Source: an uncultured virus (IMG/VR IMGVR_UViG_3300044719_000152)
Taxonomy: Duplodnaviria > Heunggongvirae > Uroviricota > Caudoviricetes
Virus record (IMG/VR): IMGVR_UViG_3300044719_000152
Reading direction: 5' to 3' (one strand)
DNA: 20,000 bases
The translations under genes were made by a program, and so were the position numbers. This document shows, in pieces, positions 1,110-17,531 of the stretch. Position 1 is the first letter of the stretch; each line of letters begins with the position of its first letter. The notes under the pieces are model-generated. The model searched no databases, was not told the origin of the DNA, and saw only the letters and a list, made by a program, of their open reading frames with translations.

Positions 1110-1127
1110 GAATTGTTTGCGCACGAT

Positions 1128-2732: not shown

Positions 2733-2863
2733 ACCTGCTCCGGCGGTCGGTGAGCGTCACAGCACCCGTCGGCCGTGACCTGGCCAACGCACTCCTCGCT
2801 GTCGCGTTGGCACGGCAGGTATTCCTCGTCGGACACGAGCGGGCGGTCGAACCCGGGGCTCAT
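2729..2863 (-). CDS. Small Cys-rich hypothetical protein (44 aa), below the ORF-track cut-off
   Basis: MSPGFDRPLVSDEEYLPCQRDSEECVGQVTADGCCDAHRPPEQV. ATGA overlap with the upstream gene and GTGA overlap with terL, so it fills the gap exactly. Confidence 0.6.
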   Translation of the reverse strand: MSPGFDRPLVSDEEYLPCQRDSEECVGQVTADGCCDAHRPPEQV

Positions 2864-3165
2864 GCCGGCCACGCCCAGTTGCCCGGCTGGTCGCCCTCGA
2901 CGCGCGAGGTCGCCCAGTACTGGCCGTACCCGTCGAGTTGCACCATCAGGTTGGCCGTGGTGGTCGACGGGTCGAACACGGCGACGATCGTCGCTGGGTA
3001 GATCTGGCCGGCGTGGACCGAGTTGCGCTGGTAGATGTCGTACTCGCCGCCGTCGAGGCGGGTGCCCTTCCGGTGCTGCGGCGCGTGGGAGTCGATGAGG
3101 GCAAGGTCGCCCTCGCTGACCTTGTAGAGGACGTGCGCGCCGATGCTCGGCTTCTGGTCGGTCAT
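2860..3165 (-). CDS. Hypothetical phage protein (101 aa)
   Basis: GGAG RBS, protein-like composition (KPSIGAHVLYKV...PATIVAVF...ANLMVQLDG...GNWAWPA), co-oriented in the operon. Confidence 0.8.
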   Translation of the reverse strand: MTDQKPSIGAHVLYKVSEGDLALIDSHAPQHRKGTRLDGGEYDIYQRNSVHAGQIYPATIVAVFDPSTTTANLMVQLDGYGQYWATSRVEGDQPGNWAWPA

Positions 3166-3242
3166 GTCACTCTCCGTTCATCAGCATTTGCAAGTGCGAG
3201 TGTTTCGCCGGGGATCTCCGGCACTTGCGTCACGGTCAGTTG

Positions 3243-3953
3243 CTATCCAACCCACCGCCACGGCACCGGGTCTGGTCGGAGCGCCGCGTTCAGCGCGTCG
3301 TGGTGGACCACGACGGCCGTCCCAGGTGGTACGAGCGGGCTGTACCGGATCGGCAGGTCGGGCATCGCGCCGACGGCGACGCGCGTCATCACGGCGGGAC
3401 CGTCGGCCGCTCGGCAGTAGAGGGCGCGGCCGGTCAGCTCGGTCGGCTCATGCCGTGCCTGCTGCATGTGGGCAACGGCGACGCGCGCTGCGTCTGCGAT
3501 GTGCCGCTCCAGCTCGCTCGCCGGCGCGACCGCCGCAGGCATGGCCAGCGGGGAGAAGTCGAGCACCTCGACGGGCTCCTCCTCGACGTTCCCCGCGGTG
3601 ATCCGGTACGACCGCACCTCGGGCTCGTCGGCGCGGAGCGAGACGATGACGTAGTGCGCGTCCGGTTCGGCGGCGTACCGCACATCCGGCGCGGACGGGT
3701 ACGCCTCGGTGGCCGGGTGGGAGTGGTAGATGACCACCGGTTGCTCGCCGCGCCGGTCCATGTCGAGCCACACGGCGAGCTGCTCGCCGGGGTCCATCTC
3801 GTAGCGGCTGCGGGACTGGGCGGCGTTGCGCATGGGGACGTGCCGCTCGGCGAGCCCATCCCGGCCGGCGAGCACGCCGCACGCTTCGAGGGGTGCTTCG
3901 GCGCGGCAGTGGGCGACCATGGCGTCCAGGAGGTCACGGCGTAGGCGCAGCAC
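3243..3953 (-). CDS. JAB/MPN+ (JAMM, M67) metallopeptidase, Mec-like, with a ~100-aa C-terminal extension
   Basis: EACGVLAG and IYHSHPATEAYPSAPD match E...HxH-x7-S-x2-D. The N-terminal ~133 aa closely resemble my recollection of mycobacterial Mec/Rv1334 (AMVAH, PVVIYHSH, EPDAHYV, RSYRI, EEPV). Start moved to GTG 3953 after GGAGG. Confidence 0.9.
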   Translation of the reverse strand: MLRLRRDLLDAMVAHCRAEAPLEACGVLAGRDGLAERHVPMRNAAQSRSRYEMDPGEQLAVWLDMDRRGEQPVVIYHSHPATEAYPSAPDVRYAAEPDAHYVIVSLRADEPEVRSYRITAGNVEEEPVEVLDFSPLAMPAAVAPASELERHIADAARVAVAHMQQARHEPTELTGRALYCRAADGPAVMTRVAVGAMPDLPIRYSPLVPPGTAVVVHHDALNAALRPDPVPWRWVG

Positions 3954-4137
3954 TGGGTGCCTCCGGTTCATCCAGGGCGGCGCGCAGGCCGTCGATGATG
4001 TACTGCACGGAGCCCGACGCGCGGTGCTCCTCGTCGTGCTCCAGCGACGTGATCGCCTCGCGGATCGCGGCGCCGAGCCGGTCGACGCGGCGGCCGAGGA
4101 TCCGGGCCAGCGCGGTCGAGGTGGCCGAGGCGCTCAT
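3934..4137 (-). CDS. Hypothetical protein (67 aa)
   Basis: MSASATSTALARILGRRVDRLGAAIREAI...; ATGA overlap with the upstream gene; this is the C-terminal part of track ORF 3934..4395. Confidence 0.6.
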   Translation of the reverse strand: MSASATSTALARILGRRVDRLGAAIREAITSLEHDEEHRASGSVQYIIDGLRAALDEPEAPSAAPTP

Positions 4138-4331
4138 GCCGGCTTCCCCTTGACCTCGACCCAGTCGACGGCGGTGAGGTTGATGAGGCGCTGGCCGGAC
4201 GCGTCGTTGATGGTGAGGACGCCACCGAAGCCGAGGTCGTCGACCAACGCGGTGAACTGCTTCAGCTCGTCGTCGGTGGGGCTGTAGGCGACGGTGTCGC
4301 CGTTGCGCATGTGCAGGACGATCGGGATCAC
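4134..4331 (-). CDS. Hypothetical small protein (65 aa)
   Basis: MIPIVLHMRNGDTV...RLINLTAVDWVEVKGKPA; GTGA overlap with the HNH-like gene and an AGGAG RBS. Confidence 0.7.
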   Translation of the reverse strand: MIPIVLHMRNGDTVAYSPTDDELKQFTALVDDLGFGGVLTINDASGQRLINLTAVDWVEVKGKPA

Positions 4332-4804
4332 GGCTGCTCCTTCGAAGCGGGCGGCCACTCGCTGGCCGGCACGAACTCGGCCGGCGGCGGCGCACCCGCG
4401 CGCCGATACCGCAGCGGCTCCCAGAACGGGCCCGGCAGCACGTGCACGCCGAGGTGCGTCCGGTGGTGCGTCGCGCACAGCGGCTCTAGGTTCCCCGGCC
4501 CCTCGATCCACGCCTGGAAATCGGCGTCGGACTCGAAGTGCAGGCCGAACGCCGCGGCGACCTTGTCCGGGTCCATGTTGTTGACCTCGGAGAACTCGAT
4601 GTGGCTGTGGTGCAGCTCGATCGGGCCGCCGCACAGGTCGTCGCCGATGACGCACTTCCACAGGCCCTGCCGATGGAGCCGGGCCTTGGCCTGCATGAAC
4701 AGGTGGTAGTGCGGGTCGGACTCGCGGGGTTGGTGCTCCGGGACGTGGGCGAGGATGTGCAGCGTTAGTCGCTGCTCGTGCGCCGGCGTCGGGTGGTCAA
4801 CCAT
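4328..4804 (-). CDS. HNH endonuclease-like protein, probably packaging-associated
   Basis: CVIGDDLC...IELHH...NLEPLCATHH...H fits an HNH/zinc pattern with a long insert; lies between the putative terminase subunits. Confidence 0.65.
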   Translation of the reverse strand: MVDHPTPAHEQRLTLHILAHVPEHQPRESDPHYHLFMQAKARLHRQGLWKCVIGDDLCGGPIELHHSHIEFSEVNNMDPDKVAAAFGLHFESDADFQAWIEGPGNLEPLCATHHRTHLGVHVLPGPFWEPLRYRRAGAPPPAEFVPASEWPPASKEQP

Positions 4805-5096
4805 CAGTCGGCTCCTTCGGCTTGGCGTCCTTCAACTCCGCGTCCGCCCACCGGCCCCAGAACTCCGCCTGCGCCTGGGCTATCGCCATCTGGAAGTCGA
4901 GCTCGGCCGTGGCCGCCGCCTTCACGGCTTCCTCGATGGCCTGCACCGTCCGGCACGGCCACGTCTGCGGGTTCTCGCCAGCGCACTCCGCGCAGCTGCC
5001 GTACTCCTCGTGATGCAGCCGCAGCACCGCCGCCGCGACAGGGTTCGCACTCGACACGCGGGCCAGTTCCACCACGCGGTCCCAGTCAGCTGCCAT
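4797..5096 (-). CDS. Hypothetical zinc-binding phage protein
   Basis: LH...CAEC...WPCRTV pattern common in actinophage small proteins; overlaps both neighbours. Confidence 0.75.
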   Translation of the reverse strand: MAADWDRVVELARVSSANPVAAAVLRLHHEEYGSCAECAGENPQTWPCRTVQAIEEAVKAAATAELDFQMAIAQAQAEFWGRWADAELKDAKPKEPTDG

Positions 5097-5625
5097 CGAC
5101 GCCGCCCTTCAACCGGGCCTCGGCCAGCGCGGCGTCGGCCTTGGCCTTGTTCACCATGTCGATCAGTTCGAGGTCCTGCTGCGTCGTCTCCGTCAGCGTC
5201 GCGTCGACCTTCAGCGCGCCCTCCGTGCCGTGGAGGCGCATCATGCGACCCACCAACGACTCGGCCCGGCCGATCGCCGCGAGCGTCACGCCGGGGTCCT
5301 CCAGCGGTGCACCGTCCGGGCCACGCACGACGCGGCCGTCCGACACGAGCGGGTGCGGTGTGCGGATGATCTCGACGGCCCGGTTGAACAGCCGCTCCAG
5401 GCGGTCGTGCTGGACGCGGCGGTACTGCTCGCGAAGCGGGTCGACGGTCTCCCGGATCTCGCACTCCAGGCGCCGGCTGACGGTGGTCTTGGACAGGCCG
5501 GTGAGCTCGGCGATCTCGCGGAGGTTGTGGCCGGCGAGGTACAGCTCGTAGCAGATGCGTTGTTCTTCGGCGAAGTGTGCGTTGGTGTAGCGGGGCTTGC
5601 GGTAGGGCTGGATTCCCCCGGCCAT
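5086..5625 (-). CDS. HTH protein, putative terminase small subunit
   Basis: N-terminal HTH (LYLAGHNLREIAELTGLSKTTVSRRL) followed by a helical region, 179 aa, upstream of HNH and terL; AGGAGG RBS. Confidence 0.65.
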   Translation of the reverse strand: MAGGIQPYRKPRYTNAHFAEEQRICYELYLAGHNLREIAELTGLSKTTVSRRLECEIRETVDPLREQYRRVQHDRLERLFNRAVEIIRTPHPLVSDGRVVRGPDGAPLEDPGVTLAAIGRAESLVGRMMRLHGTEGALKVDATLTETTQQDLELIDMVNKAKADAALAEARLKGGVDGS

Positions 5626-6174: not shown

Positions 6175-6363
6175 GGTGTGCTCCTAGCTATTCGCTGGGC
6201 GTTATCGCCATCGTGTTCGTGTTATCAAACCGTGGCGTGTCGGCGGGTCGGCGGCGTTTGTCTGTGGGTTAGCGTAGGCCGAGAGCCGTCGGCCGCCGCG
6301 ACTGTTGACACCGTTTCGTTGTGCGTGGCACCGATTGTTTTTCACGCACGAAAGGCGGTGCTG
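6175..6363. promoter_or_regulatory. Divergent promoter region between the packaging and glycosylation operons
   Basis: Non-coding gap between divergent starts; TTGACA at 6305-6310 (+), TACGCT at 6271-6276 (-), inverted repeat GTGCGTG(6321-6327)/CACGCAC(6343-6349). Confidence 0.6.
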
Positions 6364-6603
6364 ATGGATCCGCAGAACGAACCGACGTACGTCACACCCA
6401 GGCAGTTGGCGGAGCGTCTTGGCGTCACCCCGCAGAACGTGCTCTACCACGTGAGGCAGAAGCACATCGCGGCCGAGCGGCCCGGCGGACGGGACGTCCT
6501 GATCCCGGCGGCGGAGGCGGATCGGGTGGCGGCGATGTACCGGCCGCACGCCCAGCGGATCTGGCAGGCGCGGCGACCGGAGCAGGAGGCGAAGAGTGCC
6601 TGA
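6364..6603 (+). CDS. Excisionase/MerR-like helix-turn-helix DNA-binding protein (79 aa)
   Basis: YVTPRQLAERLGVTPQNVLYHVRQKHIAAERPGGRDVLIP matches the HTH_17/Xis-like pattern; AAAGG RBS. Confidence 0.8.
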   Translation: MDPQNEPTYVTPRQLAERLGVTPQNVLYHVRQKHIAAERPGGRDVLIPAAEADRVAAMYRPHAQRIWQARRPEQEAKSA

Positions 6604-7093
6604 CTGGTTTACGTCCGAGAACCTGGCACCGCAGGGGCCAGCACCGCAGAAGTACCTGCTGGAGTGGAAGAAGCTGGGGTTCTACCAGCCGCTGTCGCGC
6701 GATGTGGCCATCCCGCCCGGTGTCACGGGCGTTGAGCTGTCGGTCGACGAGACGCTCGGCTTCTGCTCCGAGCAGATCCTGCTGAAGCTGAAGGCGTTCG
6801 TGCTGACGCATCCGCTGGCCGAGCACGAGGTGACGCGGACGAAGGCGGTCGAGTGGCCGGCGACGCCGTGGCAGCACTGGAAGCAGCGCCACAGCGAGTC
6901 GTGGTGGCTGCGGTGGCTCGTGCAGCGGTGGCCAGTGCGAATGCAGCAGCAGGTCGTGGATTTCCGGGAGGCTTGGCAGGAGATGGCCGCGTACCCATGG
7001 CAGGACCGTCTGCCGCGGCTGTCCGGCTTGGGCAGCCCGTCTCGGATGGTGGAGGTTCTGGCGGCCGAGTGGAACGTCGAGGACACGCCGTGA
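6596..7093 (+). CDS. Hypothetical Trp-rich protein
   Basis: AGGAGG RBS, GTG start, overlaps both neighbours. Confidence 0.75.
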   Translation: MPDWFTSENLAPQGPAPQKYLLEWKKLGFYQPLSRDVAIPPGVTGVELSVDETLGFCSEQILLKLKAFVLTHPLAEHEVTRTKAVEWPATPWQHWKQRHSESWWLRWLVQRWPVRMQQQVVDFREAWQEMAAYPWQDRLPRLSGLGSPSRMVEVLAAEWNVEDTP

Positions 7094-7662
7094 GCGCGAC
7101 GATCGCGGCCCGGTTCATCGGCGGCCCGTACGACGGCCAGGTGGAGAACGTCCCGGCCGACTACGACCGGGACAAGCTGATCGGCCTGGTGCCGGCGCTC
7201 CGCACGATCCGCCGGGCGCAGCCGCCTGAGTTCCGCCTGGTGCCCTCCGGGCAGCCCGAGAGCGACGTCATGCGGGACCTGTACTACGACTGCCAGCACC
7301 GCGGCGGCGAGTGGGTGTACGTCCTGCACGGCACGGACCCGGCGGTGTTGCCGGAGAAGACCGATCCGGTGTTGGAGACGCTGCTGGCGCACATACGCCG
7401 CGAGTGGCCGAACCGGCGCGTCTTCGAGAAGTCCACCAGCGTGGACGTCTACGTGCACATGGACGGCGGCGACAGGCTTGAGGAGTACGTGAGCAAGCGC
7501 CTCTTGCTGGACCTGCACGATGTGGCTGGGGCCGAGAACATGATGCTGCTGTCGGTGGACGGACCACGGTGGCAGCAGACCGAGAGTGGCTACCACGACA
7601 CGTGCACGATCAGGGGGACGGCGATCCGCCGGTGCTGGCCGCGCAAGGAGGCCGGCGCGTGA
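7090..7662 (+). CDS. Hypothetical protein (190 aa)
   Basis: MSATIAARFIGGPYDGQ..., a phage-type FxGGPxDG motif; GTGA overlaps at both ends. Confidence 0.75.
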   Translation: MSATIAARFIGGPYDGQVENVPADYDRDKLIGLVPALRTIRRAQPPEFRLVPSGQPESDVMRDLYYDCQHRGGEWVYVLHGTDPAVLPEKTDPVLETLLAHIRREWPNRRVFEKSTSVDVYVHMDGGDRLEEYVSKRLLLDLHDVAGAENMMLLSVDGPRWQQTESGYHDTCTIRGTAIRRCWPRKEAGA

Positions 7663-8633
7663 AGATCTTCGGCTGGTCGGCGGACACACAGGGGTGCAGC
7701 TACTGGCGCATGGAGCTGCCCATGGGCGAACTGGCGGCGCGTGGGCACACGACCTCGGTGCACCCGCTCCTGACGCGAGACGCACCGCAAGCGGACGTGA
7801 TCGTCGGTCAGCGGGTGCACCTGCCGGGCCCGACGGGGACGTGGCAGACGTGGGCCCGCGGCGGCAAGTTCCTGGTGTACGAGATTGACGATGACCTGTT
7901 CCGTGTGGACCAGCGGAACAGCATCGCGCACCGCTGGTACAAGCAGCAGGGCGTGCTGGACAACATCCGGGCGAACGCGGCGGCGGCGTCCCGGGTGACG
8001 GTGACGACAGAGCCGCTGGCCGAGGTGATGCGCGAGTTCAACCGAGACGTGCGGATCGTGCCGAACCTCATTCCCTCGTGGCTGTTGGAGCACGAGCCGC
8101 CGCGTCGGTCCGACGTCGTCACGGTCGGGTGGGGTGGCAGCCCGACGCACGACATGGACCTCAGCGTGATGGAGGACGAGCTGCGGCGCCTGCTGCGGAA
8201 GGAGCGCGGCTTCGAGGTGCACACGATGGGCGGGGACTACGGGCCGTTCATGCGCCTGCCGGCGGATCGGTACCGGTGGACGCCGTGGGTGCAGGGCGTG
8301 GTCCCGTTCCTGATGGCGATCGACTTTCACGTGGGGCTGTTGCCGTTGCGGGACCACGTGTTCAACCGGTCCAAGAGCTGGGTCACCGCGCTGGTGTACG
8401 CGGCGCTCGGCATCCCGGTGGTGGCCAGCGACGTCGGGCCGTACGCGGCGTTCGTGCGGCACGGCGAGACCGGGTTCCTGGTGAAGCGGCCCGGTGACTG
8501 GGTGCGGTACGTGAGGGACCTGGTGCGAGACACCGAGTTGCGGGAGTCGATGGGTGCGGCGGCCAAGGCGCTGGCGGCGAAGCACACCATCGAGGCGAAC
8601 TACGGGATGTGGGAAGAGGCGCTGCGGCCGTGA
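7659..8633 (+). CDS. GT-B fold glycosyltransferase (GT4-like), 324 aa
   Basis: GCSYWRMELP, VYEIDDDLF, VTVTTEPLA, VGWGGSPTHDMDL, FNRSKS...YAALGIPVVASDVGPY, VRHGETGFLV; AAGGAGG RBS with GTGA overlap. Confidence 0.92.
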   Translation: MKIFGWSADTQGCSYWRMELPMGELAARGHTTSVHPLLTRDAPQADVIVGQRVHLPGPTGTWQTWARGGKFLVYEIDDDLFRVDQRNSIAHRWYKQQGVLDNIRANAAAASRVTVTTEPLAEVMREFNRDVRIVPNLIPSWLLEHEPPRRSDVVTVGWGGSPTHDMDLSVMEDELRRLLRKERGFEVHTMGGDYGPFMRLPADRYRWTPWVQGVVPFLMAIDFHVGLLPLRDHVFNRSKSWVTALVYAALGIPVVASDVGPYAAFVRHGETGFLVKRPGDWVRYVRDLVRDTELRESMGAAAKALAAKHTIEANYGMWEEALRP

Positions 8634-8908
8634 CGATCCTGCGCTGGGAGGACCCGCCCCCGCTCAAGGACGGCGCTGATCAGGCGTGGGTGACTGATGT
8701 TGCCAACGTGCTGGCGGAGCGCCCCGGAACGTGGGCCGTGGTCGGTGAGTACCGGCAGCCGATGGATGCGATCAAGCCGGTTTGGCTGCTCGCGAACGTG
8801 CCGAACGTGTGGACCACTCACAGGATCTCGGAGCGCTGCACGACGCTCTACGCCTGCTGGTCCAGGAAGAAGCCCGAGGAACCGAGGGAGTCGAACGGTG
8901 GCAGCTGA
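8630..8908 (+). CDS. Hypothetical protein (92 aa)
   Basis: LRWEDPPP...LAERPGTWAVV, an actinophage-type small protein; GTGA overlap. Confidence 0.7.
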   Translation: MTILRWEDPPPLKDGADQAWVTDVANVLAERPGTWAVVGEYRQPMDAIKPVWLLANVPNVWTTHRISERCTTLYACWSRKKPEEPRESNGGS

Positions 8909-9611
8909 CCTGTTGATGATCGTGCCGAGCCGTGGCCGGCCCCAGAACGTGGCCGCGCTGCTGGACTCCTGGGCCGAGACCGCGACCGGCGCGGCAGACC
9001 TCGTCGTCGCGGTCGACGCCGACGACCCCGAGCTGCCGGGGTACGAGTCGCTGCGCATGAGCCGGTCCTGGCCGGCCGCGTTGGGGAACTTCCACATGCA
9101 CACTGGCGCGCGGCTGCGGCTGGGCGGCACGTTGAACTTCATCGCCGAGTGGGCGCTACTGCACTACCCGATGGTCGGGTTCCTCGGAGACGACCACCGG
9201 CCGCGCACCTCCGGGTTCGACCGCCGCATGGTCGAGGCGCTCACCGAGCTCGGCACCGGCATGGTCTACGCGGACGACCTTTTCCAGCGGCAGAACCTGC
9301 CGACCCAGATCGCGATGACCTCGGACATCGTGCGGGCGTTGGGCTACATGGTGCCGGGCGGTTTGGTGCACCTGTACGTGGACAACGCGTGGAAGGTGCT
9401 CGGCGAGCGGATCGGGCGGCTGCGGTACCTGCCGGACGTGGTGATCGAGCACTTGCACCCGTCGGCAGGAAAGGCCGACCTGGACGACTCGTACCGCGAG
9501 ACAAACTCGCAGCAGCAGTTCGACGCGGACCGTGGGCGGTTCGAGGACTGGCTGCGGTTCCAGGCCGATGCGGACGTGGCCCAGCTCCAGGAGCTGATCC
9601 GACGTGGCTGA
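8898..9611 (+). CDS. GT-A fold glycosyltransferase (GT2-like), 237 aa
   Basis: LLMIVPSRGRP, VVAVDADD, GFLGDDHRPRT, HLYVDN, VIEHLHP; GGGAG RBS before GTG 8898. Confidence 0.85.
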   Translation: MAADLLMIVPSRGRPQNVAALLDSWAETATGAADLVVAVDADDPELPGYESLRMSRSWPAALGNFHMHTGARLRLGGTLNFIAEWALLHYPMVGFLGDDHRPRTSGFDRRMVEALTELGTGMVYADDLFQRQNLPTQIAMTSDIVRALGYMVPGGLVHLYVDNAWKVLGERIGRLRYLPDVVIEHLHPSAGKADLDDSYRETNSQQQFDADRGRFEDWLRFQADADVAQLQELIRRG

Positions 9612-10200
9612 CGTGCCGGAGGTCCGGATCAGTCCGGACAGGACGCAGGTTGCGGTCCTCACGGATCCCGGCCAGCACACACCATGGGCCACGGTCAGGG
9701 TGCTGATCGGCGGCGTTGCAACGGACGAGTGGGTGGCTGGATGGACGCCACTCGTCGATGCAACGGAGCAGGCGGTCACTCCTGACAAAGCTGCCGCGCT
9801 GGTCCTCTACGAGGCGGCCGAGTGGGTGGCGTCCTACCGGGACCAGATGAAGCGGGGCTCCGGCGACCGGCGTGCCGCCGAACGTATCCACGCCGTGCTG
9901 GCGGATCGGGCCCGGCGGCGGCACCTCGGCGAGCTGTACGACCCGGCGATCGCCGTGAGCGGGGAGTTGCTGCGGCAGGAGCTCGCGGCGCGGCCAGCGC
10001 CGGTGGACCTGGCTGGGCTGGCCGACAAGTGGGAGAAGGAGGCGCACGCCATCGCCACTGACGGGTTCGTGCCGCTGTCCATCCGCGACAAGGGAACGCC
10101 AGAGGACGCAGCGCAGTGGCGGAAGCAGGCCGAGGCGCAGGCGTACGGCATGAACTGGTGCGCAGGCGAACTGCGGCGAGCGATGGGGGCTGGCCAGTGA
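9604..10200 (+). CDS. Hypothetical protein (198 aa)
   Basis: AGGAG RBS; overlaps both neighbours. Confidence 0.7.
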   Translation: MADVPEVRISPDRTQVAVLTDPGQHTPWATVRVLIGGVATDEWVAGWTPLVDATEQAVTPDKAAALVLYEAAEWVASYRDQMKRGSGDRRAAERIHAVLADRARRRHLGELYDPAIAVSGELLRQELAARPAPVDLAGLADKWEKEAHAIATDGFVPLSIRDKGTPEDAAQWRKQAEAQAYGMNWCAGELRRAMGAGQ

Positions 10201-10799
10201 CCGAGTGGCAGCTGTTCGAGTCGGGCACCGTGCCGGAGTGCACGACGCCGGCCTGGTACGAGGGCCGCGAGCGTGCGCCGCACGTCGACCAGGACGCGCA
10301 CCGCGGCCGGCTCGTGCTCGCCGCCGACATGGTGCGGGACGCGATCGACCAGTACGGGGTGCGGTCCGTTGTGGACCTCGGGTGCGGCGACGGCGGACTC
10401 CTGTCGCTGCTCCAGCCGTACTCGTTCGAGCACGACGTGCCGATGTGGGGCTACGACCTCCAGCGCTCCAACGTGAACCCGGCCGTGCTGGAGCGCGAGG
10501 TCGACGTGCGGTTCGGTGACGCGGTGAACGGCGCCGTCGAGTGGGGCGAGCTGGCGGTGTGCACCGAGTTCCTGGAGCACCTGGTCGACCCTCACGGGTT
10601 CGTGCGCCGGGTCGGCGAGCACGCGCGGGTGATCGTGGCGAGCTCGCCGTTTACGGAGACCGACCAGTCGCACTACGAGTTCCACACCTGGGCGTTCGAC
10701 ATGGCCGGGTATCGGGCGCTGATCGAGCAGGCCGGCTACCACGTCGAGCGGCACGAGACGACGTCGATGTTCCAGGTGATCCTCGGGAGGAAGCCGTGA
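10197..10799 (+). CDS. Class I SAM-dependent methyltransferase (200 aa)
   Basis: VVDLGCGDGGLL (motif I), GYDL, CTEFLEHLVDP. No DPPY/NPPY or PC motif, so not a DNA methyltransferase. Confidence 0.9.
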   Translation: MTEWQLFESGTVPECTTPAWYEGRERAPHVDQDAHRGRLVLAADMVRDAIDQYGVRSVVDLGCGDGGLLSLLQPYSFEHDVPMWGYDLQRSNVNPAVLEREVDVRFGDAVNGAVEWGELAVCTEFLEHLVDPHGFVRRVGEHARVIVASSPFTETDQSHYEFHTWAFDMAGYRALIEQAGYHVERHETTSMFQVILGRKP

Positions 10800-11155
10800 C
10801 CGACGACGAGAACGACGGCTGGCGGGCGCATGTCCTGTACGAGGATCGGGTGCTGTACGAGGACGGTGCGCTGCGGATGGCGCTGGGCCGCCGCATCGGT
10901 CGAGGGGCGCACGAGTGCGTGGTCGGTATCGATGCCGCGGGCGGCCTCACGCTGAAGCTGGCCGAAGAGGGCACCCAGGTGCCGACCTTCCTCCTGCCGT
11001 CCACCGTTGCCCGCGCGTTGCTCGATGCGTTGGCGCAGCACTTCGGCGGGACCGGCGACGTGCGGCAGCTTCGGAAGGAACACGATGCCGAGCGGGCCCG
11101 CGTGGACAAGCTGATCGCCACGCTCTCCACCGTCGCGACGCGGGGGCAGCCGTGA
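10796..11155 (+). CDS. Hypothetical protein (119 aa)
   Basis: GGAGG RBS, GTGA overlaps, C-terminal coiled coil (LRKEHDAERARVDKLIATL). Confidence 0.75.
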   Translation: MTDDENDGWRAHVLYEDRVLYEDGALRMALGRRIGRGAHECVVGIDAAGGLTLKLAEEGTQVPTFLLPSTVARALLDALAQHFGGTGDVRQLRKEHDAERARVDKLIATLSTVATRGQP

Positions 11156-11307
11156 CGCTAAGGCCGTACGTCTGCCGGCGGTGCCAGACGCCGCGCGCCA
11201 GCTGGGAGATCTTCGAGGCAGCCCGGTTCGGCCGCCCGAAGTACTACTGCCTGGGCTGCATCCCGTGGTGGGTGCGGCTGACGATGTGGCTGCGGGGTGT
11301 GGAGTGA
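11152..11307 (+). CDS. Small zinc-ribbon-like protein (51 aa)
   Basis: CRRC...CLGC; GTGA overlaps at both ends. Confidence 0.6.
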   Translation: MTLRPYVCRRCQTPRASWEIFEAARFGRPKYYCLGCIPWWVRLTMWLRGVE

Positions 11308-11669
11308 GCGAGCAGCAGCGCACCGAGCGGACCGCCGTCGAGCAGGCCGTGTACGACACGCTGGCCGAGTACAACCACCGCGCCCACGGCCTGACCGCCG
11401 TGCCCGAACCGACATGGTTCCTGGACTGGCTGCGGGAACGCGGCTACGAGGTCACGCCGACCGGTGCCCGGGACGAGTCGCTGTCGGAGTGGCTGGAGAA
11501 CTCGCGGGTGGCCGAGGTGCTGGCGGCGCTGGTCCGGCGTGGTGGGTCGGAGGCGGCCGAGTTCACGGACTCCGAGTTGCACGGATTCGACGCGACGCAG
11601 CAGCAGGTGCAGTTCCGGCAGGACGACGACGGGAATGTGCGCGTGGAGATCACGGAGGTGTCGGAGTGA
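11304..11669 (+). CDS. Hypothetical protein (121 aa)
   Basis: GTGA overlaps at both ends; acidic, protein-like sequence. Confidence 0.7.
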   Translation: MSEQQRTERTAVEQAVYDTLAEYNHRAHGLTAVPEPTWFLDWLRERGYEVTPTGARDESLSEWLENSRVAEVLAALVRRGGSEAAEFTDSELHGFDATQQQVQFRQDDDGNVRVEITEVSE

Positions 11670-11839
11670 GCCGGGAGACGAGGCAGCTGCACCCGCTGGT
11701 CGCGCTCGGCGTGGCCGGGCTGGTGGCGGGGTGTGTGGCTTGGGCGTGGCTGGGCGAGTGGCGGTGGGCCGTCACCGGTGTGGGCGCGCTGCTGGTGACC
11801 ACGGTGGTCGCGGCGGTGCGCGGGAAGGGGCACGCGTGA
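11666..11839 (+). CDS. Small membrane protein with two predicted TM segments (57 aa)
   Basis: LVALGVAGLVAGCVAWAWL and WAVTGVGALLVTTVVAAV; GGAGG RBS; GTGA overlaps. Confidence 0.7.
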   Translation: MSRETRQLHPLVALGVAGLVAGCVAWAWLGEWRWAVTGVGALLVTTVVAAVRGKGHA

Positions 11840-12789
11840 AGATCCTCGTCACCGGCCACCGTGGCTTCGTCGGCAGGCACCTCTGGCGCGCCCTCGCCGA
11901 CCGAGGGCACTCGCTGACGGGCATCGACCTGCTGGGCTACGGCGACCATCAGCCCGAGCTGGCCGACATCGCGACGGAGGAAAGGCGGGATGCCCTGGAC
12001 TTCTTCCGCACGGACACCACGCGGTTCGACTTGGCGTTCCACTGCGCGGCGGTGATCGGCGGCCGGGCGTCCATCGACGGCTCACCGCTCGCGGTCGGCA
12101 CCAACCTGGCGCTGGACACCTGGTACTTCCGGTGGCTGGCCCGGACGGGGACGCCGCGCGCCGTCTACTTCTCCAGCTCGGCGGCCTACCCCACGGTGTT
12201 GCAGGACCGCGGGTACCACGACCGGTATGTCGACAGCGTGCGGGATCGGGTCAGGCGATTGACCCTCGGTAACCGGCTCAGCGAGTCGGACATCCGGCTG
12301 GACGTGATGCGGCGGCCGGACCAGACGTACGGGTTCGCCAAGCTCGCCGGCGAGTTCCTGGCCCAGTACGCCGAGGGCACGCAGGTGACGATCGTGCGGC
12401 CATTCTCGGGCTATGGCTCCGACCAGGCGCTGGATTACCCGTTCCCGTCCTTCATCGACCGGGCCAAGCGGAAGGCGGACCCGTTCGAGATCTGGGGCGA
12501 CGGCGAGCAAACCAGGGACTGGATCCACATCGACGACGTGGTCGGCGCGACGCTCGCCGCCGTCGAGCAGGAGGTGCCCGGCCCGGTGAACCTGTGCACC
12601 GGCAGGCCGACCAGCTTCAACGAGCTGGCCAAGCTGGTGACCACGGAGGCCGGCTACTCCCCCGCGTTCCGCCACCTCACCGCGAAGCCGAGCGGGGTGC
12701 ACTACCGGGTCGGCGACCCGACCAAGCTCCTGTCGTTCTACGAGCCGAAAGTCAGTCTGGAGGACGGGATCCGCCGTGCACTTCAATGA
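11836..12789 (+). CDS. NAD-dependent nucleotide-sugar epimerase/dehydratase (extended SDR), 317 aa
   Basis: KILVTGHRGFVG (GxxGxxG), FHCAA, YFSSSAAY, YGFAK (YxxxK), IWGDGEQTRDWIHIDD. Confidence 0.95.
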   Translation: MKILVTGHRGFVGRHLWRALADRGHSLTGIDLLGYGDHQPELADIATEERRDALDFFRTDTTRFDLAFHCAAVIGGRASIDGSPLAVGTNLALDTWYFRWLARTGTPRAVYFSSSAAYPTVLQDRGYHDRYVDSVRDRVRRLTLGNRLSESDIRLDVMRRPDQTYGFAKLAGEFLAQYAEGTQVTIVRPFSGYGSDQALDYPFPSFIDRAKRKADPFEIWGDGEQTRDWIHIDDVVGATLAAVEQEVPGPVNLCTGRPTSFNELAKLVTTEAGYSPAFRHLTAKPSGVHYRVGDPTKLLSFYEPKVSLEDGIRRALQ

Positions 12790-13045
12790 GGAGGACTTCG
12801 AGGTCACGCCCAACACGGACGGGGCCGTCGACAGCCAGCACTTCATCACCTTCGACCTGCCGGACACCGGCGAGGACATGGTCGACCTGCTGCTGGAGAA
12901 GCTCCAACGGTTCCGGGAGCAGTTGCGCGAGGACCACCCGAACACCTTCTGGCTCAAGGGGAAGGTGACGTTCGGCGCGAGCTGGGGGATGACGTCGTCG
13001 CGGCAGCCGTCGATCCGGATCGAGATGCGGGGGCGGCGACGGTGA
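12776..13045 (+). CDS. Hypothetical protein (89 aa)
   Basis: GTG start overlapping the epimerase end; GTGA overlap with the next gene. Confidence 0.65.
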   Translation: MHFNEEDFEVTPNTDGAVDSQHFITFDLPDTGEDMVDLLLEKLQRFREQLREDHPNTFWLKGKVTFGASWGMTSSRQPSIRIEMRGRRR

Positions 13046-13434
13046 CCGGCCTGCCCGGCGCCGAGCCGCCGGACATGGCCGCCGCATCCGGCGCACCGCT
13101 CGACGAGGTGCGCGCCGGAGCATCGCGCGCCCGGACCACGAGCGCGGCGTTCGCGCCACCGTCGGCGTTCCGGGAGGTACTCGACGAGGCCACGCGCAAA
13201 GCGATCCGCGCGCACGCTGCGGTTGAGGCGCGGATGCCGGAGGTCATGGCCGGGCTGATGGCGCGGGAGCGCCTGCTGTCGGCGGGGCTCGCTGAGGACG
13301 AGCTGGAGTGGATCGTCCCGACGGCGTACGGGTGGGGTGAACCGGGCCAGGAGGGCAACCAGCTGTACGGCATCCGGATCCGCGCAGTCGAGGGCATCGA
13401 CCACCTGTACCTCGCGGCCACGGTGAAGCCGTGA
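13042..13434 (+). CDS. Hypothetical protein (130 aa)
   Basis: GTGA overlaps at both ends. Confidence 0.65.
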   Translation: MTGLPGAEPPDMAAASGAPLDEVRAGASRARTTSAAFAPPSAFREVLDEATRKAIRAHAAVEARMPEVMAGLMARERLLSAGLAEDELEWIVPTAYGWGEPGQEGNQLYGIRIRAVEGIDHLYLAATVKP

Positions 13435-14024
13435 GCCTCGACATCGGCGTGGTCATCCCCGCCCACCCTGCGCGGATCCGCGCCGGCCTGCTGGACCGCG
13501 CGGTCGCCTCGGTGTGGGCCCAGACCCTGCCAGCGGCCGAGCTGCACATCCCGGTCGACCGGCACCGCGAGGGCGCGGCGGCGACCCGGAACCGCGGCCT
13601 GGCCGCCGTCGACTCGGAATGGGTGGCGTTCCTCGACAGCGACGACGAGTTCCTGCCGCACCACCTCGAGCGGCTCGCCGCGCACGCGGTCGAGACTGGC
13701 GCGGACATGGTGTACCCGTGGTTCGAGACGCCGGGCTGGTCCGACCCGCTCGGCCGGTTCGGACAGCCGTTCGACCCGGTATCCATCCGGTCGGCGAACT
13801 ACGTGCCCGTCACCGTGCTGGTCCGGACCGAGCTCCTGCGCTCGGTCGGCGGGTTCGTCAACCTCCACGACGGCAGCGAGCGGGCCACCTGCGAGGACTG
13901 GGGAGCGTGGCTCGCCCTCATCGACGCTGGCGCGCGGATCGTGCACCTGCCCGAGCGGACCTGGCGGTGGCACCTGCACGGCGGCAACACGAGCGGCCGC
14001 ACCACCCAGGGCGACGCGGCCTGA
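13431..14024 (+). CDS. GT2 family glycosyltransferase (197 aa)
   Basis: IGVVIPAH, SVWAQT, GAAATRNRGL, WVAFLDSDDEF (DxD), CEDW. Confidence 0.93.
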   Translation: MSLDIGVVIPAHPARIRAGLLDRAVASVWAQTLPAAELHIPVDRHREGAAATRNRGLAAVDSEWVAFLDSDDEFLPHHLERLAAHAVETGADMVYPWFETPGWSDPLGRFGQPFDPVSIRSANYVPVTVLVRTELLRSVGGFVNLHDGSERATCEDWGAWLALIDAGARIVHLPERTWRWHLHGGNTSGRTTQGDAA

Positions 14025-14027
14025 TGA

Positions 14028-14059: not shown

Positions 14060-14788
14060 TCATGACGCAGATTCGTCGGGGATCTCCTGCCAGTACTGGA
14101 GTTCGTACAGGTGCGCGCCTTTCACAAGCACGCTGGCCTCGACCGGCCGCTCCCCCGAGTAGATCGTCCGCAACTGCCGGATCACCGGTACATCAGAGGG
14201 CAGGTCGAGGGTCTCCAGCTCCGCGGTCGTCGGCTGGCGCGCGGAGATGCGGTCGGTCAACCGCTGCTGCGGCCATCCCTGGTCGGCCAGCACGCGGGGT
14301 GCGCCGCCGCGGATCCGGAGCCGCCGGGCCAGCGGGGTGCCGGCGGCCAGCTCGAGCGGGTAGTACGACCAGCTGATCTCGACCGGCTCACCGTCGTGTA
14401 ACAGCAGCCGGTGACGGAGGATCGCCGTGCCGTCCTCGCCGAGGCCGAGCGCTTGCGCGGCGTCCGCCGGCGGACGCGTCTCAGCGACGTCGAGCAGCTG
14501 GTAGGCGTAGCCATTCGGCATCGGTTCGAAGTAGGCGGCGATGTCGACCACGAACGGGCGCCGGTCCCGCACGTACACGCCGGCGCCGGGCCTGCTGTGC
14601 AGGTAGCCCTCCTCGCGCAGGGCGGTGGTCACCTTCTGGATGGTGGGGTTGGCGGCGCCGTAGCGGTCGACGAGCTGGGTGGTGGACGGCAGTTGGTCCC
14701 CCGGCGCGAGATCACCGGCCATGATCTTGGCGCGGAGGTCGGCCGCGACCTGCTGGTGCAGGGGCCGGGTGTCACGCGGTCGCGGCAT
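14060..14788 (-). CDS. GntR family (HutC/UTRA) transcriptional regulator
   Basis: wHTH HQQVAADLRAKIMAGDLAPGDQLPST...LREEGYLHSRPGAGVYVR plus a C-terminal UTRA domain (GEPVEISWSYYP, VIRQLRTIY, RPVEAS). Confidence 0.95.
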   Translation of the reverse strand: MPRPRDTRPLHQQVAADLRAKIMAGDLAPGDQLPSTTQLVDRYGAANPTIQKVTTALREEGYLHSRPGAGVYVRDRRPFVVDIAAYFEPMPNGYAYQLLDVAETRPPADAAQALGLGEDGTAILRHRLLLHDGEPVEISWSYYPLELAAGTPLARRLRIRGGAPRVLADQGWPQQRLTDRISARQPTTAELETLDLPSDVPVIRQLRTIYSGERPVEASVLVKGAHLYELQYWQEIPDESAS

Positions 14789-15329
14789 CGTCGCCTCCGA
14801 GCTGGTACCGGAGGCGACGGCCCGGGAGCATGGTCATCACGCTGACTTCGACCGGGACGCCATCCTGGTTGGTGATGGTCCGGGTGAGCTCGAGCACGGG
14901 CGTCGGTTCGGTGAGGTTCAGTAGCTCCCGCTCGGCGGCCGTGGCGAACCGGGCTGCGATGTCCTCGCACGGCGGCCGAAAATCGTGGCCGAGGCTGGCC
15001 AGCAGGGTGGGCGCGCCGCCGGGGATCTTCCGCTGCTCGGCAAGTCGGGTGCCGCGGGCGATCGCCGCCGGGTAGTAGGAGTCGGCGAGCTCGACCGGCT
15101 GGCCGTCGAGGAGTACCACCCGGCGGCGGACGACGGCGGGTTCATGCGGCGATTGCTGGAGGGCAGCGGCGACCTGTGCCGGCGGCTGCACCTCGGCGAC
15201 TTCGCGCAGTCGATGGGTGCCGGTATGGCCGTGCTCGGCGGCCTCTTGCGCCCAGGCATCGGGCTGGCCGGGTTGACGTGGTTTGACGTAGGGCGTCGAG
15301 ACGCTGACCCACGTATCTGTGCTGGTCAC
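14772..15329 (-). CDS. Stand-alone UTRA domain protein (no DNA-binding domain)
   Basis: VRRRVVLLDGQPVELADSYYP, KIPGGAP, VLELTRTITNQDGVPVEVSVM; no N-terminal wHTH; AGGAG RBS. Confidence 0.88.
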   Translation of the reverse strand: MTSTDTWVSVSTPYVKPRQPGQPDAWAQEAAEHGHTGTHRLREVAEVQPPAQVAAALQQSPHEPAVVRRRVVLLDGQPVELADSYYPAAIARGTRLAEQRKIPGGAPTLLASLGHDFRPPCEDIAARFATAAERELLNLTEPTPVLELTRTITNQDGVPVEVSVMTMLPGRRLRYQLGGDDAATA

Positions 15330-15855: not shown

Positions 15856-16160
15856 ATCACCACCCGCTGATAGCGGGGGCACCGCGGACTACGATGCTCC
15901 GACGGCGGAGTCGGTGCGGGCTGTTCGCGCTGATCTGTGCTCGACTCCGCCGCCTCCGACTTGGCCTGCTCGCCGCACCGGCGGCAGCGCGGGATGCGGT
16001 CGAGATCTGGGTTGCGGGACACCGGCACCCACGCGCGGCGCCGCACTCCGCACAGCGCAGTCGCGGTCCAGGCTCGGCCTCGTGGCGTGAGGTGGTGCTG
16101 GCACTCGATCGTGACGTTGCAGGCGAAAGGCAGGTTGACGAACCATCCGGCAACGGTCAT
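15852..16160 (-). CDS. Cys/His-rich hypothetical protein coupled to the integrase
   Basis: H...ALCG...RCRRC zinc-binding pattern; ATGA overlap with the integrase stop. Confidence 0.6.
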   Translation of the reverse strand: MTVAGWFVNLPFACNVTIECQHHLTPRGRAWTATALCGVRRRAWVPVSRNPDLDRIPRCRRCGEQAKSEAAESSTDQREQPAPTPPSEHRSPRCPRYQRVVI

Positions 16161-17398
16161 GCCTGGTCCGTATCGGGCACGTACATGTTGTCGATGGCGT
16201 CCACCAGATTGGGGTTGTCAAGGTGGCGACCCATGTAGGTGTCGTAGGTGTCCTTGATTGAGTCCTTTCCGACCCAGTCGGAGATCTCGCGGGCTGTGAA
16301 TCCGGCGGCGTCCAGATTGGTGATCATCGTCTTGCGGCCGATATGACTGACGAAGTCGTCGAAGCCGATCCGTTCCCTGAGTTCTTGGATCTCGCCCGAG
16401 GTGTTGTTCGGGTCACGCCAGCGCAGCTTGCCGTTGGGGAAGACCGGCTCGTCGCCGGGGGCCTCCGCCGGCTTGCGCACCAGGAGCATCATGTAGACCA
16501 CTTCCGGCATGCGGCGGATACGGTTGGATGCCTTCGCCTTCGGCGGGTGGCGGACCAGCCCCTTCCCCTTGACGCGGACGATCGTTCCGTTGAGCCAGAT
16601 ATGCCTCGGCGGAATGGTTCGGTACACGCCTGGCTTCCAAGGGTCTTCGACTTTGATCGGCTCGTCGGTCAAGTTGACGTATTTCCACTGCACCGCGAAC
16701 GCCTCGCCGATTCGCACGGCCATGTAGAACACGAAGCGAAGTAGGTCGTTGAGGCCAGACCGTTTTGCCTTGGCGTCCGCGTCGGCCGCTTCGAAGAACG
16801 CCGCTGCGCGCTTCTTGTCGTAGGCGGTCGGCTCCTTCAGCGGACCGCCCTCGATGTCCTCCAGTTCGGCGACCGGGTTGTGGGTGAACACCCCGTGGAG
16901 CACCGCGACCTGCATGACGCCGCTGACGATGGCCCGGATCGCGCGGCGCGTGTTCGGTGCCAGCGGAGTGCCGCGGCGGGACTCAGCGGTCTCCAGCTTC
17001 TCGAAGTACCGGTTGAGGCGGGCTGGCGTGCACTCGCGGAGCAGGTACTCGCCGAGGTATGGCAGCACCCACTTGTCCGTGTACCGCCGCTTGGTGTCGT
17101 AGGTGCTGCCGCGCCGCTTGCGCTCGATCTTGTCGAGGTAGATCTGTGCGGCCTGCTTGAAGCGGTCGGTGCCCGTGAGGTCCTCGCCACCCTTGCCCTG
17201 GAGGTTGGTGAGGTGCTCCTTGAGGTTGGCCTTGGCCTTCGCCTCGGTCGGCCCCCGCCGCTCCTCGGGGCGGGTGACGCCGTCCTCGTGCCGGTAGCGG
17301 CAGCCGGCGCGCCAGTAGGCTGCCGTCTTGCCGTTCGCCGCGACCAGCATCGTCCAGATCTCGCCGTACGTGCCGATGGCGAGCGGCGGTCTTGCCAT
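16157..17398 (-). CDS. int: Tyrosine recombinase/integrase (413 aa)
   Basis: MARPPLAIGTYGEI start after GGAGG; catalytic R (AVRIGEAFAVQW), K (PKAKAS), HxxR (HIGRK) and Y (TYDTYMGR); next to a tRNA 3' fragment. Confidence 0.95.
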   Translation of the reverse strand: MARPPLAIGTYGEIWTMLVAANGKTAAYWRAGCRYRHEDGVTRPEERRGPTEAKAKANLKEHLTNLQGKGGEDLTGTDRFKQAAQIYLDKIERKRRGSTYDTKRRYTDKWVLPYLGEYLLRECTPARLNRYFEKLETAESRRGTPLAPNTRRAIRAIVSGVMQVAVLHGVFTHNPVAELEDIEGGPLKEPTAYDKKRAAAFFEAADADAKAKRSGLNDLLRFVFYMAVRIGEAFAVQWKYVNLTDEPIKVEDPWKPGVYRTIPPRHIWLNGTIVRVKGKGLVRHPPKAKASNRIRRMPEVVYMMLLVRKPAEAPGDEPVFPNGKLRWRDPNNTSGEIQELRERIGFDDFVSHIGRKTMITNLDAAGFTAREISDWVGKDSIKDTYDTYMGRHLDNPNLVDAIDNMYVPDTDQA

Positions 17399-17500
17399 GG
17401 TGCCTCCCCGGTCCCCAGGGGTTTCCGCTGGGTTTCCGCTGATTCGGACTACGATAAGCGTCCCGACAGGGAGATCACAATGGCTCTGACCAGGCGAAAC

Positions 17501-17531
17501 TGTAGGGCGGGTGGGGCTCGAACCCACGACC
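17501..17531 (-). other. att site core: tRNA 3' fragment (T-arm and acceptor 3' strand), probably of a CAT-anticodon Ile2/Met tRNA
   Basis: The minus strand reads GGTCGTGGGTTCGAGCCCCACCCGCCCTACA: stem GTGGG/CCCAC with a TTCGAGC loop, then CCGCCCT-A. No anticodon or D arm upstream. tRNA identity is from recollection only. Confidence 0.8.

Follow-up and report, generated by a model that had tools for sequence, protein, structure and literature searches.

The 20,000-nucleotide stretch of DNA studied here, called the window below, comes from IMG/VR virus record IMGVR_UViG_3300044719_000152, an uncultured member of the Caudoviricetes. Between positions 6364 and 14024 it carries an operon of carbohydrate-type enzymes. 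This operon is one of a large, uncharacterised family of actinophage cassettes that are not orthologous to the characterised genes of mycobacteriophages. In our judgement there is about an even chance that it is a cytoplasmic glycosylation cassette which decorates the phage's own virion, most likely the capsid; gene context is what suggests this acceptor. To our knowledge, the only phages with demonstrated virion glycosylation are a few mycobacteriophages, in which it shields the particles from antibodies.

The window is about 69% G + C, and at that composition raw lists of open reading frames (ORFs) are full of artefacts. Genes were called with a frame plot of third-position GC content (GC3) and inspection of starts and ribosome binding sites (RBS). 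This results in 16 + strand genes in 6364-14024. They meet at 15 junctions. Start and stop overlap by 4 nucleotides (nt) at 11 of these, and neighbouring genes overlap by 8 nt at two more and by 14 nt at another; the remaining junction is a gap of 4 nt. A scan of 6364-14024 for terminator-like sites on the + strand found none. Because most junctions are 4-nt overlaps and no such site interrupts the genes, this is one translationally coupled operon. The many frame switches could also have meant broken or frameshifted genes, which was considered and ruled out: these are separate coupled genes with their own starts.

An initial annotation of this DNA had already described an enzyme operon with the limits 6364-14024, back-to-back with the terminase/portal operon, and the frame plot and starts arrive at the same limits. 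The five enzymes it listed are all real, but the operon has 16 genes and not five: there are 11 small ORFs between the enzymes. The five enzymes are:

7659..8633, + strand: g04, 324 amino acids (aa), GT4-like glycosyltransferase (GT) of the GT-B type (PF00534, PF13692, phrog_7162)
8898..9611 (start 8898, 8913 or 8916), + strand: g06, 232-237 aa, Pas34-like GT-A glycosyltransferase (phrog_14945)
10197..10799, + strand: g08, 200 aa, class I S-adenosylmethionine (SAM)-dependent methyltransferase (PF13489, phrog_3382)
11836..12789, + strand: g13, 317 aa, epimerase-type enzyme for nucleoside diphosphate (NDP) sugars, an extended short-chain dehydrogenase/reductase (PF01370, phrog_540)
13431..14024, + strand: g16, 197 aa, short GT2 (GT-A) glycosyltransferase (PF00535, phrog_14775)

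The first glycosyltransferase, g04, scores above the cut-offs of two Pfam families (PF00534, 37.9 bits against 26.4; PF13692, 36.9 against 27) and matches phrog_7162 at E=1.2e-57. Its AlphaFold2 (AF2) model, built on a 17-sequence alignment, has the two-Rossmann GT-B fold with a predicted local distance difference test (pLDDT) score of 93.5. The best PDB neighbours found by Foldseek are the GT4 enzymes BshA, MshA, ManT, PglA and PimA, at template modelling (TM) scores of 0.68-0.76.

The second, g06, matches nothing in Pfam or NCBIfam. It does match phrog_14945, annotated as 'glycosyltransferase', at E=7.7e-50. Its AF2 model (40-sequence alignment, pLDDT 95.8) is a single Rossmann-like GT-A fold, and Foldseek gives a probability of 1.00 to the GT2-family GT-A enzymes AvpGT, TarS, PcManGT, WrtF, K4CP and TarP. 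Invariant in the 40 sequences are D35, D37, D38 and G92-D93-D94-H95, an acidic DxD-type metal/donor site, and also H180 and H182.

The third, g16, reaches 56.1 bits on PF00535 (cut-off 23.3) and E=8e-40 on phrog_14775, and has a DSD motif at residues 69-71. A blastn match of operon DNA, at window positions 13607-13770, falls inside this gene.

The GT4 call of the initial annotation is thus borne out for g04, by Pfam, by phrog_7162, by the GT-B fold and by Foldseek. Its pair of GT2 enzymes stands in part: g16 passes PF00535, but g06 has no Pfam GT2 match and is a GT-A enzyme by its PHROG annotation and its fold. Family and fold assignment, which had been proposed as a check, places g04 among GT4-type GT-B enzymes and g06 among GT-A enzymes.

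One of these structural neighbours suggests a quite different acceptor. AvpGT is a soluble Streptomyces GT2 enzyme described as 3'-O-glucosylating tubercidin and many other nucleosides (PMC11959488). It is the sole PDB sequence match of g16 (9jma, E=5.3e-8) and heads the Foldseek list for g06. The small-molecule GT4 enzymes BshA and MshA are closest to g04 in fold, and every enzyme in the operon is predicted to be soluble. The GTs might then inactivate an antiviral nucleoside, nucleotide or antibiotic-type molecule, made by the host or by its neighbours. The similarities are weak however (35.9 bits for g16; a TM-score of about 0.55 and 18% identity for g06), and a set of three GTs, one epimerase and one methyltransferase points to an oligosaccharide more than to one isolated transfer. 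Small molecules as acceptors would also leave the placement of the cassette in the head module of eight of 26 related loci, described below, unexplained, and a resistance-type context is absent. We consider small-molecule glycosylation very unlikely.

The other two enzymes had been read as a methyltransferase and a sugar epimerase, and PF13489 and PF01370 agree. For g08, PF13489 gives 38.2 bits (cut-off 27) alongside the phrog_3382 match; its PDB sequence matches are weak, to Hen1-type enzymes at E about 0.01. For g13, PF01370 gives 124.6 bits and phrog_540 E=4.5e-48. The expected motifs are present, as TGHRGFVG at residue 6 (TGxxGxxG) and YGFAK at residue 165 (YxxxK). Its nearest PDB sequences are MoeE5, B. 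cereus UDP-GlcA 4-epimerase, UDP-Glc 4-epimerase and GDP-mannose 3,5-epimerase, with E about 1e-19 to 1e-15; the alignments at about 1e-19 cover only the C-terminal half. There is no equivalog-level NCBIfam match for g13, the best being 64.6 bits against a cut-off of 500.

All five enzymes are predicted to be soluble, in line with the cytoplasmic pathway proposed earlier, and the only operon product with transmembrane segments is the 57-aa g12. The same proposal held that the pathway makes its own nucleotide sugar. This part does not hold up: the operon has an epimerase and neither a nucleotidyltransferase nor a sugar kinase, which means that it at most converts an NDP-sugar of the host.

If the virion is the target, the cassette could work as follows. 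g13 would convert the host NDP-sugar into its epimer. g04, g06 and g16 would add sugars singly, giving a short glycan on a phage protein, and g08 would cap or decorate a sugar with a methyl group. The acceptor would most likely be the major capsid protein, perhaps joined by other proteins that have a C-terminal Gly-Ser tail. The outcome would be a sugar-coated virion, by analogy (not orthology) with the mycobacteriophages Che8 and Corndog. We infer the donor sugar, this order of steps and the timing of expression.

The case for the capsid comes from gene order in relatives. For the GT-A family of g06, 77 new loci were available, 44 of them with nearly full 7-kb flanks. Every second one of these was taken, which left 22. 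ORFs of at least 120 aa that passed a GC3 filter and overlap removal (250 ORFs) were compared to Pfam at E<=1e-6; these filters may miss genes. Around the GT-A gene were found:

PF01370 epimerase: 14 of 22 loci, the commonest neighbour
Glycos_transf_1 glycosyltransferase: 8 of 22 loci
PF00535 GT2: 8 of 22 loci
Methyltransferase: 7 of 22 loci
Capsid gene (PF05065) at most 7 kb upstream, on the same strand: 6 of 22 loci (L032, L067, L076, L082, L085 and L101)
Integrase-type gene: 1 of 22 loci (L030)

The six capsid-linked loci often have portal and protease genes before the capsid gene, and several have a connector or tail tube gene after the cassette. Four loci with homologues of the GT4 enzyme were scanned as well. 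Two of these, L019 and L021, run portal-protease-capsid-(orf-methyltransferase-)GT4 on one strand. A synteny search was among the checks proposed in the initial annotation; with 26 related uncultured-phage loci covered, it finds the cassette directly behind a capsid gene, and so linked to the head module, in eight. This capsid-side context points to the virion as the target.

One locus, L049, carries the complete set of five enzyme types. A fusion of GT-A with methyltransferase is seen in L085 and also in phrog_2675, the annotation family of phiAsp2 Pas34, and links glycosyl transfer with methylation. A few kb from the GT cassette, L041, L047 and L022 carry Ro60/TROVE and vWA genes, and there are GH5 cellulase-like genes beside the cassette in L022 and L023.

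The cassette is not rare. The GT-A family of g06 comprises at least 1515 proteins at E<=1e-5, and among the 120 listed none has a Pfam domain. It is present in at least 548 confirmed IMG/VR loci. It had been suggested that an epimerase, together with a non-mycobacterial host, makes for an undescribed variant. Given this number of loci, and an epimerase near the GT-A gene in 14 of 22, that suggestion has to be dropped. An epimerase, methyltransferases and three GTs are moreover annotated in KimJongPhill and Zuko, two Streptomyces phages that are the closest isolated relatives (46.5% identity for TerL and 35.5% for portal). In the literature searched, no published characterisation of Streptomyces-phage GTs was found. 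KimJongPhill has homologues of g04 and g16 and no annotated integrase, which argues against a function specific to lysogeny. Homologues of the GT-A enzyme are named in Kitasatospora, Streptomyces, Streptosporangium, Kutzneria and Actinomadura genomes, so named hosts and relatives alike suggest that the phage probably infects a Streptomyces-like actinomycete.

The nearest record to the window is G001, a 76,231-bp IMG/VR contig with 127-bp terminal repeats that is rated 100% complete. It is collinear with window positions 1-16148 at 82-99% DNA identity. Its genes include TerL, portal, capsid, tape measure, endolysin, an FtsK-like gene, replication and recombination genes, a NUDIX enzyme and an integrase, and it is a temperate phage of the siphovirus type. 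Two shorter contigs are also close. L018 (8.4 kb) has its enzymes in the same order as the window. G002 (25.7 kb) is 98.6-99.3% identical to window 2024-6604 and 8898-11368.

The five enzymes are all present in G001, at 93.8% (GT4), 75.7% (GT-A), 87.0% (methyltransferase), 88.9% (epimerase) and 95.4% (GT2) identity. Five of the small ORFs (g05, g07, g09, g10 and g14) have no match there. The enzyme core is conserved and the small filler ORFs turn over. These ORFs are:

6364..6603, + strand: g01, 79 aa, excisionase/MerR-type helix-turn-helix (HTH) DNA-binding protein, the first gene (PF12728, TIGR01764, phrog_57, phrog_66)
6596..7093, + strand: g02, 165 aa, no assigned function, strong RBS
7090..7662, + strand: g03, 190 aa, no assigned function, called from the GC3 frame plot
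8630..8908, + strand: g05, 92 aa, C-terminus ...PRESNGGS, 4-nt overlap with g04
9604..10200, + strand: g07, 198 aa, no assigned function, called from the GC3 frame plot
10796..11155, + strand: g09, 119 aa, no assigned function, with an RBS and a 4-nt overlap
11152..11307, + strand: g10, 51 aa, zinc-ribbon-like protein, CxxC...CxxC motif seen in the sequence
11304..11669, + strand: g11, 121 aa, no assigned function, called from the GC3 frame plot
11666..11839, + strand: g12, 57 aa, small membrane protein with two segments, Kyte-Doolittle maximum 2.13
12776..13045, + strand: g14, 89 aa, no assigned function, called from the GC3 frame plot
13042..13434, + strand: g15, 130 aa, no assigned function, 75% identical in G001

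The matches of g01 to PF12728 HTH_17 (E=2.1e-5) and TIGR01764 'excise' (E=5.3e-6) are both below cut-off; the protein is 94.9% identical in G001. PADLOC assigns no defence family to the operon ORFs, a weak mad1-like HTH match for g01 aside. A search of 5.8 billion proteins returned only four homologues of g02, which is 90.9% identical in G001, 51.9% in L018 and 41% in G002, and is specific to this phage lineage. For g03 there is no family match in Pfam, PHROGs or NCBIfam and nothing usable in Protein Atlas. It is about 45% identical in G001 (44.8%) and G002. The idea that g03 is a relative of the GTs was rejected, as it has no similarity to g16.

The other small ORFs are unevenly shared. tblastn finds no match for g05 in G001 or in L018. 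The g07 product is 99.5% identical in G002. For g09, identity is 60.9% in L018 and 98% in G002, and for g10 it is 76% in L018. g11 is 58.2% identical in G001, and g12 is 66-75% identical in G001 and L018. No match to g14 was found in any of the relatives compared.

The comparison with G002 also shows an exchange. Between flanks that are about 99% identical, the window's g02-g03-GT4-g05 segment (6604-8898) is replaced by another one in G002 (L028 4581-6986). The replacement has a GT4 allele that is 46% identical, g03-like and g02-like genes in inverted order, and no g05; the flank proteins are 96-100% identical. A replaced GT4 segment between near-identical flanks means that sibling phages recombine and so exchange their sets of glycosyltransferases.

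In the mycobacteriophage precedents, the C-termini of the acceptors are of interest: O-linked glycans reportedly sit on the C-terminal ends of the capsid and tail tube subunits. The window stops short of the capsid gene. The major capsid protein of G001 ends in ...LEDNSGS, and that of G002 is 100% identical to it. Che8 capsid gp6 ends in ...NKTGS, Che8 tail tube gp11 in ...YSDGS, Corndog capsid gp41 in ...PLVGS and Corndog gp49 in ...KGDS. The G001/G002 capsid therefore shares a C-terminal Gly-Ser with Che8 gp6, Che8 gp11 and Corndog gp41. As background, such an end is found in 10 of 1140 GC3-supported ORFs (0.9%) in high-GC loci, and in 3 of 145 in G001. The window has two among 36 GC3-supported ORFs: g05 and the TerS-like protein (5086-5625, ...GGVDGS).

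In four loci, the gene slot that separates GT4 from GT-A also holds an ORF with a Gly-Ser end. These are g05 (...PRESNGGS) and the slot ORFs of G001 (...KKESDSGS), L018 (...KEPDNGS) and L030 (...GSREGS). The G001 and L018 ORFs are homologues (57%), and g05 is unrelated to both. L039 and L049 have an ORF in this slot that has no Gly-Ser end. The slot ORFs hint at a tag, in what is a suggestive, post hoc pattern of small numbers. Gly-Ser as a general mark of cassette-linked capsids was considered too, and rejected: none of the eight other such capsid proteins ends this way.

These tails, together with the swap of a 46% identical GT4 allele between 99%-identical phages, lead to a more specific proposal, which we think quite improbable as a whole. 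The system might read a short C-terminal tag (acidic residue, x, Asp/Asn, x, Gly-Ser-COOH) and not one particular protein, and the operon might bring its own tagged acceptor. It would then be a modular, exchangeable 'glycotype', in which the glycan varies between siblings.

Phage DNA is another conceivable acceptor, and one for which the T4-type glucosylation of hydroxymethylcytosine is the precedent. The GTs would sugar a modified base, so that the DNA escapes restriction. The operon adjoins packaging genes, and KimJongPhill (NC_070830.1, 38.6-57.2 kb) has two thymidylate-synthase homologues, a dUTPase, a dCMP deaminase and a thymidylate kinase, a set that we take to be compatible with a hydroxymethyl-pyrimidine pathway. 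Against this, scans with Pfam, PHROGs and NCBIfam detect no base hydroxylase or hydroxymethylase in the window. A six-frame search of the complete G001, with positive controls passed, found no ThyA (PF00303), ThyX (PF02511) or TGT (PF01702), and there is no recognisable DNA-modification gene among the 54 G001 ORFs scanned. The top 50 fold matches of g06 and g04 include no DNA glycosyltransferase, and, as judged without profile comparison, these GTs fall outside the known families of DNA glucosyltransferases. DNA as the acceptor is, to us, most improbable.

Points for a further rival to the virion lie in the surroundings of the operon, where the following features are found:

1..5625, - strand: packaging-side genes (portal, TerL, Prok-JAB and TerS-like HTH), 99-100% identical in G001 and G002
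1-1008, - strand: portal, continuing beyond the window edge
1128-2732, - strand: TerL, packaging
3243-3971, - strand: Prok-JAB/MPN deubiquitinase-like gene, between the TerS-like gene and TerL
5086-5625, - strand: TerS-like HTH gene, packaging
5926-6174, - strand: first gene of the packaging-side operon, a small gene
6175..6363, no strand: divergent intergenic region, about 190 bp between the packaging-side operon and the glycosylation operon
14060..15329, - strand: two tandem HutC-type GntR/UTRA regulator genes, convergent with the operon, 99% identical in G001
16157..17548, - strand: tyrosine integrase (PF14659, PF00589, PF22022)

From its operon-proximal end, the packaging-side operon consists of two small genes, TerS-like HTH, Prok-JAB, TerL and portal. 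The G001 orthologues of the packaging genes match phrog_38 (E=8e-68) and phrog_104 (E=5e-63). The region 6175-6363 is presumed to hold promoters with a regulatory role. A sigma-70 consensus scan gave no promoter sites, and a comparison of the operon's upstream region with the other intergenic regions, for shared operator motifs or palindromes, yielded only the 9-11-mers expected in GC-rich DNA.

The Prok-JAB gene matches PF14464 at E=6e-31 and the NCBIfam 'desampylase' model at E=1.9e-25, the latter under that model's cut-off. Small ORFs flank it at 2860-3165, 4328-4804 and 4797-5096, and the N-terminal 137 aa of the protein are 73% identical with G001. Its product could be an isopeptidase that counters ubiquitin-like host defences.

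On the other side of the operon, the first HutC-type gene has PF00392 and PF07702, a winged HTH plus UTRA; the second has PF07702 alone, and no HTH in its 185-aa ORF. The two are paralogous (41% identity), and 35 nt separate the stop codons of operon and regulator. The HutC-type GntR/UTRA subfamily typically responds to small-molecule effectors. This pair may sense one, or may serve as phage repressor, and is a possible regulator of the operon.

The presence of a tyrosine integrase means that the phage is temperate. The integrase module (window 16148-17719; G001 74798-76009) is not shared, in that no DNA match runs across the window's integrase gene, and, with the collinear flanks as reference, the G001 integrase is encoded on the other strand. 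This suggests a cassette swap or inversion versus G001, by which the attachment site is probably different. A NUDIX gene is also found downstream of the operon.

Such a setting is what one might expect of lysogenic conversion or superinfection exclusion. Working at the cytoplasmic face, the GTs would modify an envelope polymer, glycoprotein or lipid-linked precursor of the host, and so alter the receptor of other phages. Prophage-encoded TarP, for example, modifies teichoic acid in S. aureus. The structural neighbours of g06 and g04 include TarS, TarP, TarM and RmlT. The phage is temperate, its operon sits between the packaging genes and the integrase beside the two HutC-type regulators, and it is transcribed opposite to the late genes. 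The related locus L030 is near an integrase too, and a GT4 allele swap between otherwise 99%-identical phages is what serotype-like systems look like. But homologous GTs occur in KimJongPhill, where no integrase is annotated, and inside head modules in 8 of the 26 loci. Sixteen coupled genes would be unusually long for a moron, and the likeness to the Tar enzymes is generic to GT-A and GT-B folds (TM 0.5-0.6).

The membrane components of a surface-modifying system are missing as well. It had been noted before that no flippase, GtrA/B-type gene, base hydroxylase or hydroxymethylase is recognisable in the window, and among the ORFs scanned Pfam, PHROGs and NCBIfam concur on the flippase, GtrA/B-type and hydroxymethylase families. 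There is no polytopic membrane protein. A gtrABC-type module (GtrA flippase, GtrB, polytopic GtrC) gave no match, with one GtrB-like exception: g16 to phrog_22739, at E=0.0083. Taking both sides together, we hold modification of the host surface to be unlikely.

The virion as acceptor, the reading preferred here, has its own share of evidence against it. In this phage the operon is outside the head module. It diverges from the packaging genes and has the integrase about 2 kb away and two GntR-type regulators beside it, a position that also fits a lysogenic-conversion module. Among the 26 loci, 18 have no capsid gene next to the cassette; L049, L057 and L092 are near lysis or tail genes, and L030 near an integrase. 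The Gly-Ser end, as seen above, is carried by 0 of 8 other cassette-linked capsid proteins. The G001 tail tube protein ends in ...DQTA, and neither the capsid nor the tail tube protein of KimJongPhill has a Gly-Ser end.

The enzymes raise doubts of their own. GT4/Glycos_transf_1 (GT-B, retaining) enzymes are expected to have an EX7E motif. It is absent from g04, where the aligned stretch reads NRSKSWVTALVYAALG. Residue 246 (window 8384-8386) is Val, and this is common to the window, G001 and L018; in 14 of 17 relatives it is Glu, within an ALEYAALG stretch. At the upstream Glu position they all have Lys or Ser. With Val for a conserved Glu, the activity of g04 is uncertain: its donor site may be changed, or the enzyme may be inactive, though it is otherwise well conserved.

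The fold neighbours include enzymes that act on wall teichoic acid (TarS, TarP, TarM) and on small molecules (BshA, MshA, AvpGT). Neighbours this varied mean that the fold does not identify the acceptor. Finally, a BLASTP comparison of all window proteins with Che8 gp108-110 and Corndog gp35-38 found nothing at E<0.05 except g16 with Che8 gp108 (E=0.04), and in tblastn searches there are no mycobacteriophages among the 142, 69 and 13 phage records matched by the three GTs.

The cassette enzymes are unrelated to the mycobacteriophage ones and far more widespread; the GT-A family occurs mostly in phages of high-GC actinomycetes. If capsids are coated, glycosylated proteins would be common among soil phages and not a mycobacterial curiosity, and the cassettes would hold soluble, portable enzymes for glycosylating proteins, perhaps guided by a C-terminal tag. 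An effect on the host surface, on DNA or on small molecules would instead be a new type of phage-host interaction in antibiotic-producing bacteria. With either outcome, the enzymes and the capsid C-terminus are a direct experimental handle. Two leads are new: the swapped GT4 allele and the Gly-Ser tails that several proteins share.

The prophage-encoded TarP of S. aureus, as well as TarS and TarM, are soluble cytoplasmic GT-A or GT-B enzymes and structural neighbours of g06 and g04. This similarity is at fold level only (6-16% identity), and the trimerisation and acceptor-binding domains of the Tar enzymes are absent from g06 and g04.

Closer in sequence are the Pas34-like GT-A enzymes (phrog_14945), a family for which no characterised member was found in the literature searched. 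Pas34 of phiAsp2 (Actinoplanes), gp38 of Jay2Jay (Streptomyces) and gp170 of Atuin (Arthrobacter) are 38-42% identical to g06, which also matches many Streptomyces phages of about 130 kb similar to Jay2Jay. As here, the enzyme is paired with a second short GT, which is gp39 in Jay2Jay and gp169, homologous to g16, in Atuin. With gp165, gp169 and gp170, Atuin has homologues of all three GTs. In these phages the usual partner of the GT-A enzyme is a small nucleotidyltransferase (for example in Jay2Jay), and not an epimerase.

KimJongPhill and Zuko (genus Zukovirus, cluster BR) have the same five enzyme types as the window, likewise adjoining packaging genes. Upstream of the terminase they encode gp4 epimerase, gp5 methyltransferase and gp6 GT, and at the right end gp107 GT, gp108 methyltransferase and gp109 GT. 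Their glycosylation genes are thus divided between two genome ends, unlike the single operon of the window. With g04, gp6 shares 39-40% identity; gp107 shares 46-51% with g16 (50.8% in KimJongPhill). The epimerase, the methyltransferases and the gp109 GT, however, have no BLAST similarity to g13, g08 and g06. Also unlike the window, neither phage has an annotated integrase (KimJongPhill has 118 annotated features).

For Che8 and Corndog, the precedents for a glycosylated virion, the likeness is one of composition, protein sizes and placement; given the lack of sequence similarity between the enzymes, the systems are analogous and not orthologous. Putative GTs are said to exist in some Gordonia and Streptomyces phages as well. 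Compared to Che8 and Corndog, the operon described here adds an NDP-sugar epimerase and eleven small ORFs, and is divergent from the late genes in a temperate Streptomyces-type phage. In all three phages the genes are beside or inside the packaging/head genes: Corndog has its methyltransferase and three GTs (gp35-38) between portal and capsid genes, and this operon, also with a SAM methyltransferase and three GTs, adjoins the packaging genes across about 190 bp. Che8 and the window both have tandem soluble phage-encoded GTs, which measure 391, 232 and 211 aa in Che8 (gp108-110) and 324, 232 and 197 aa here.

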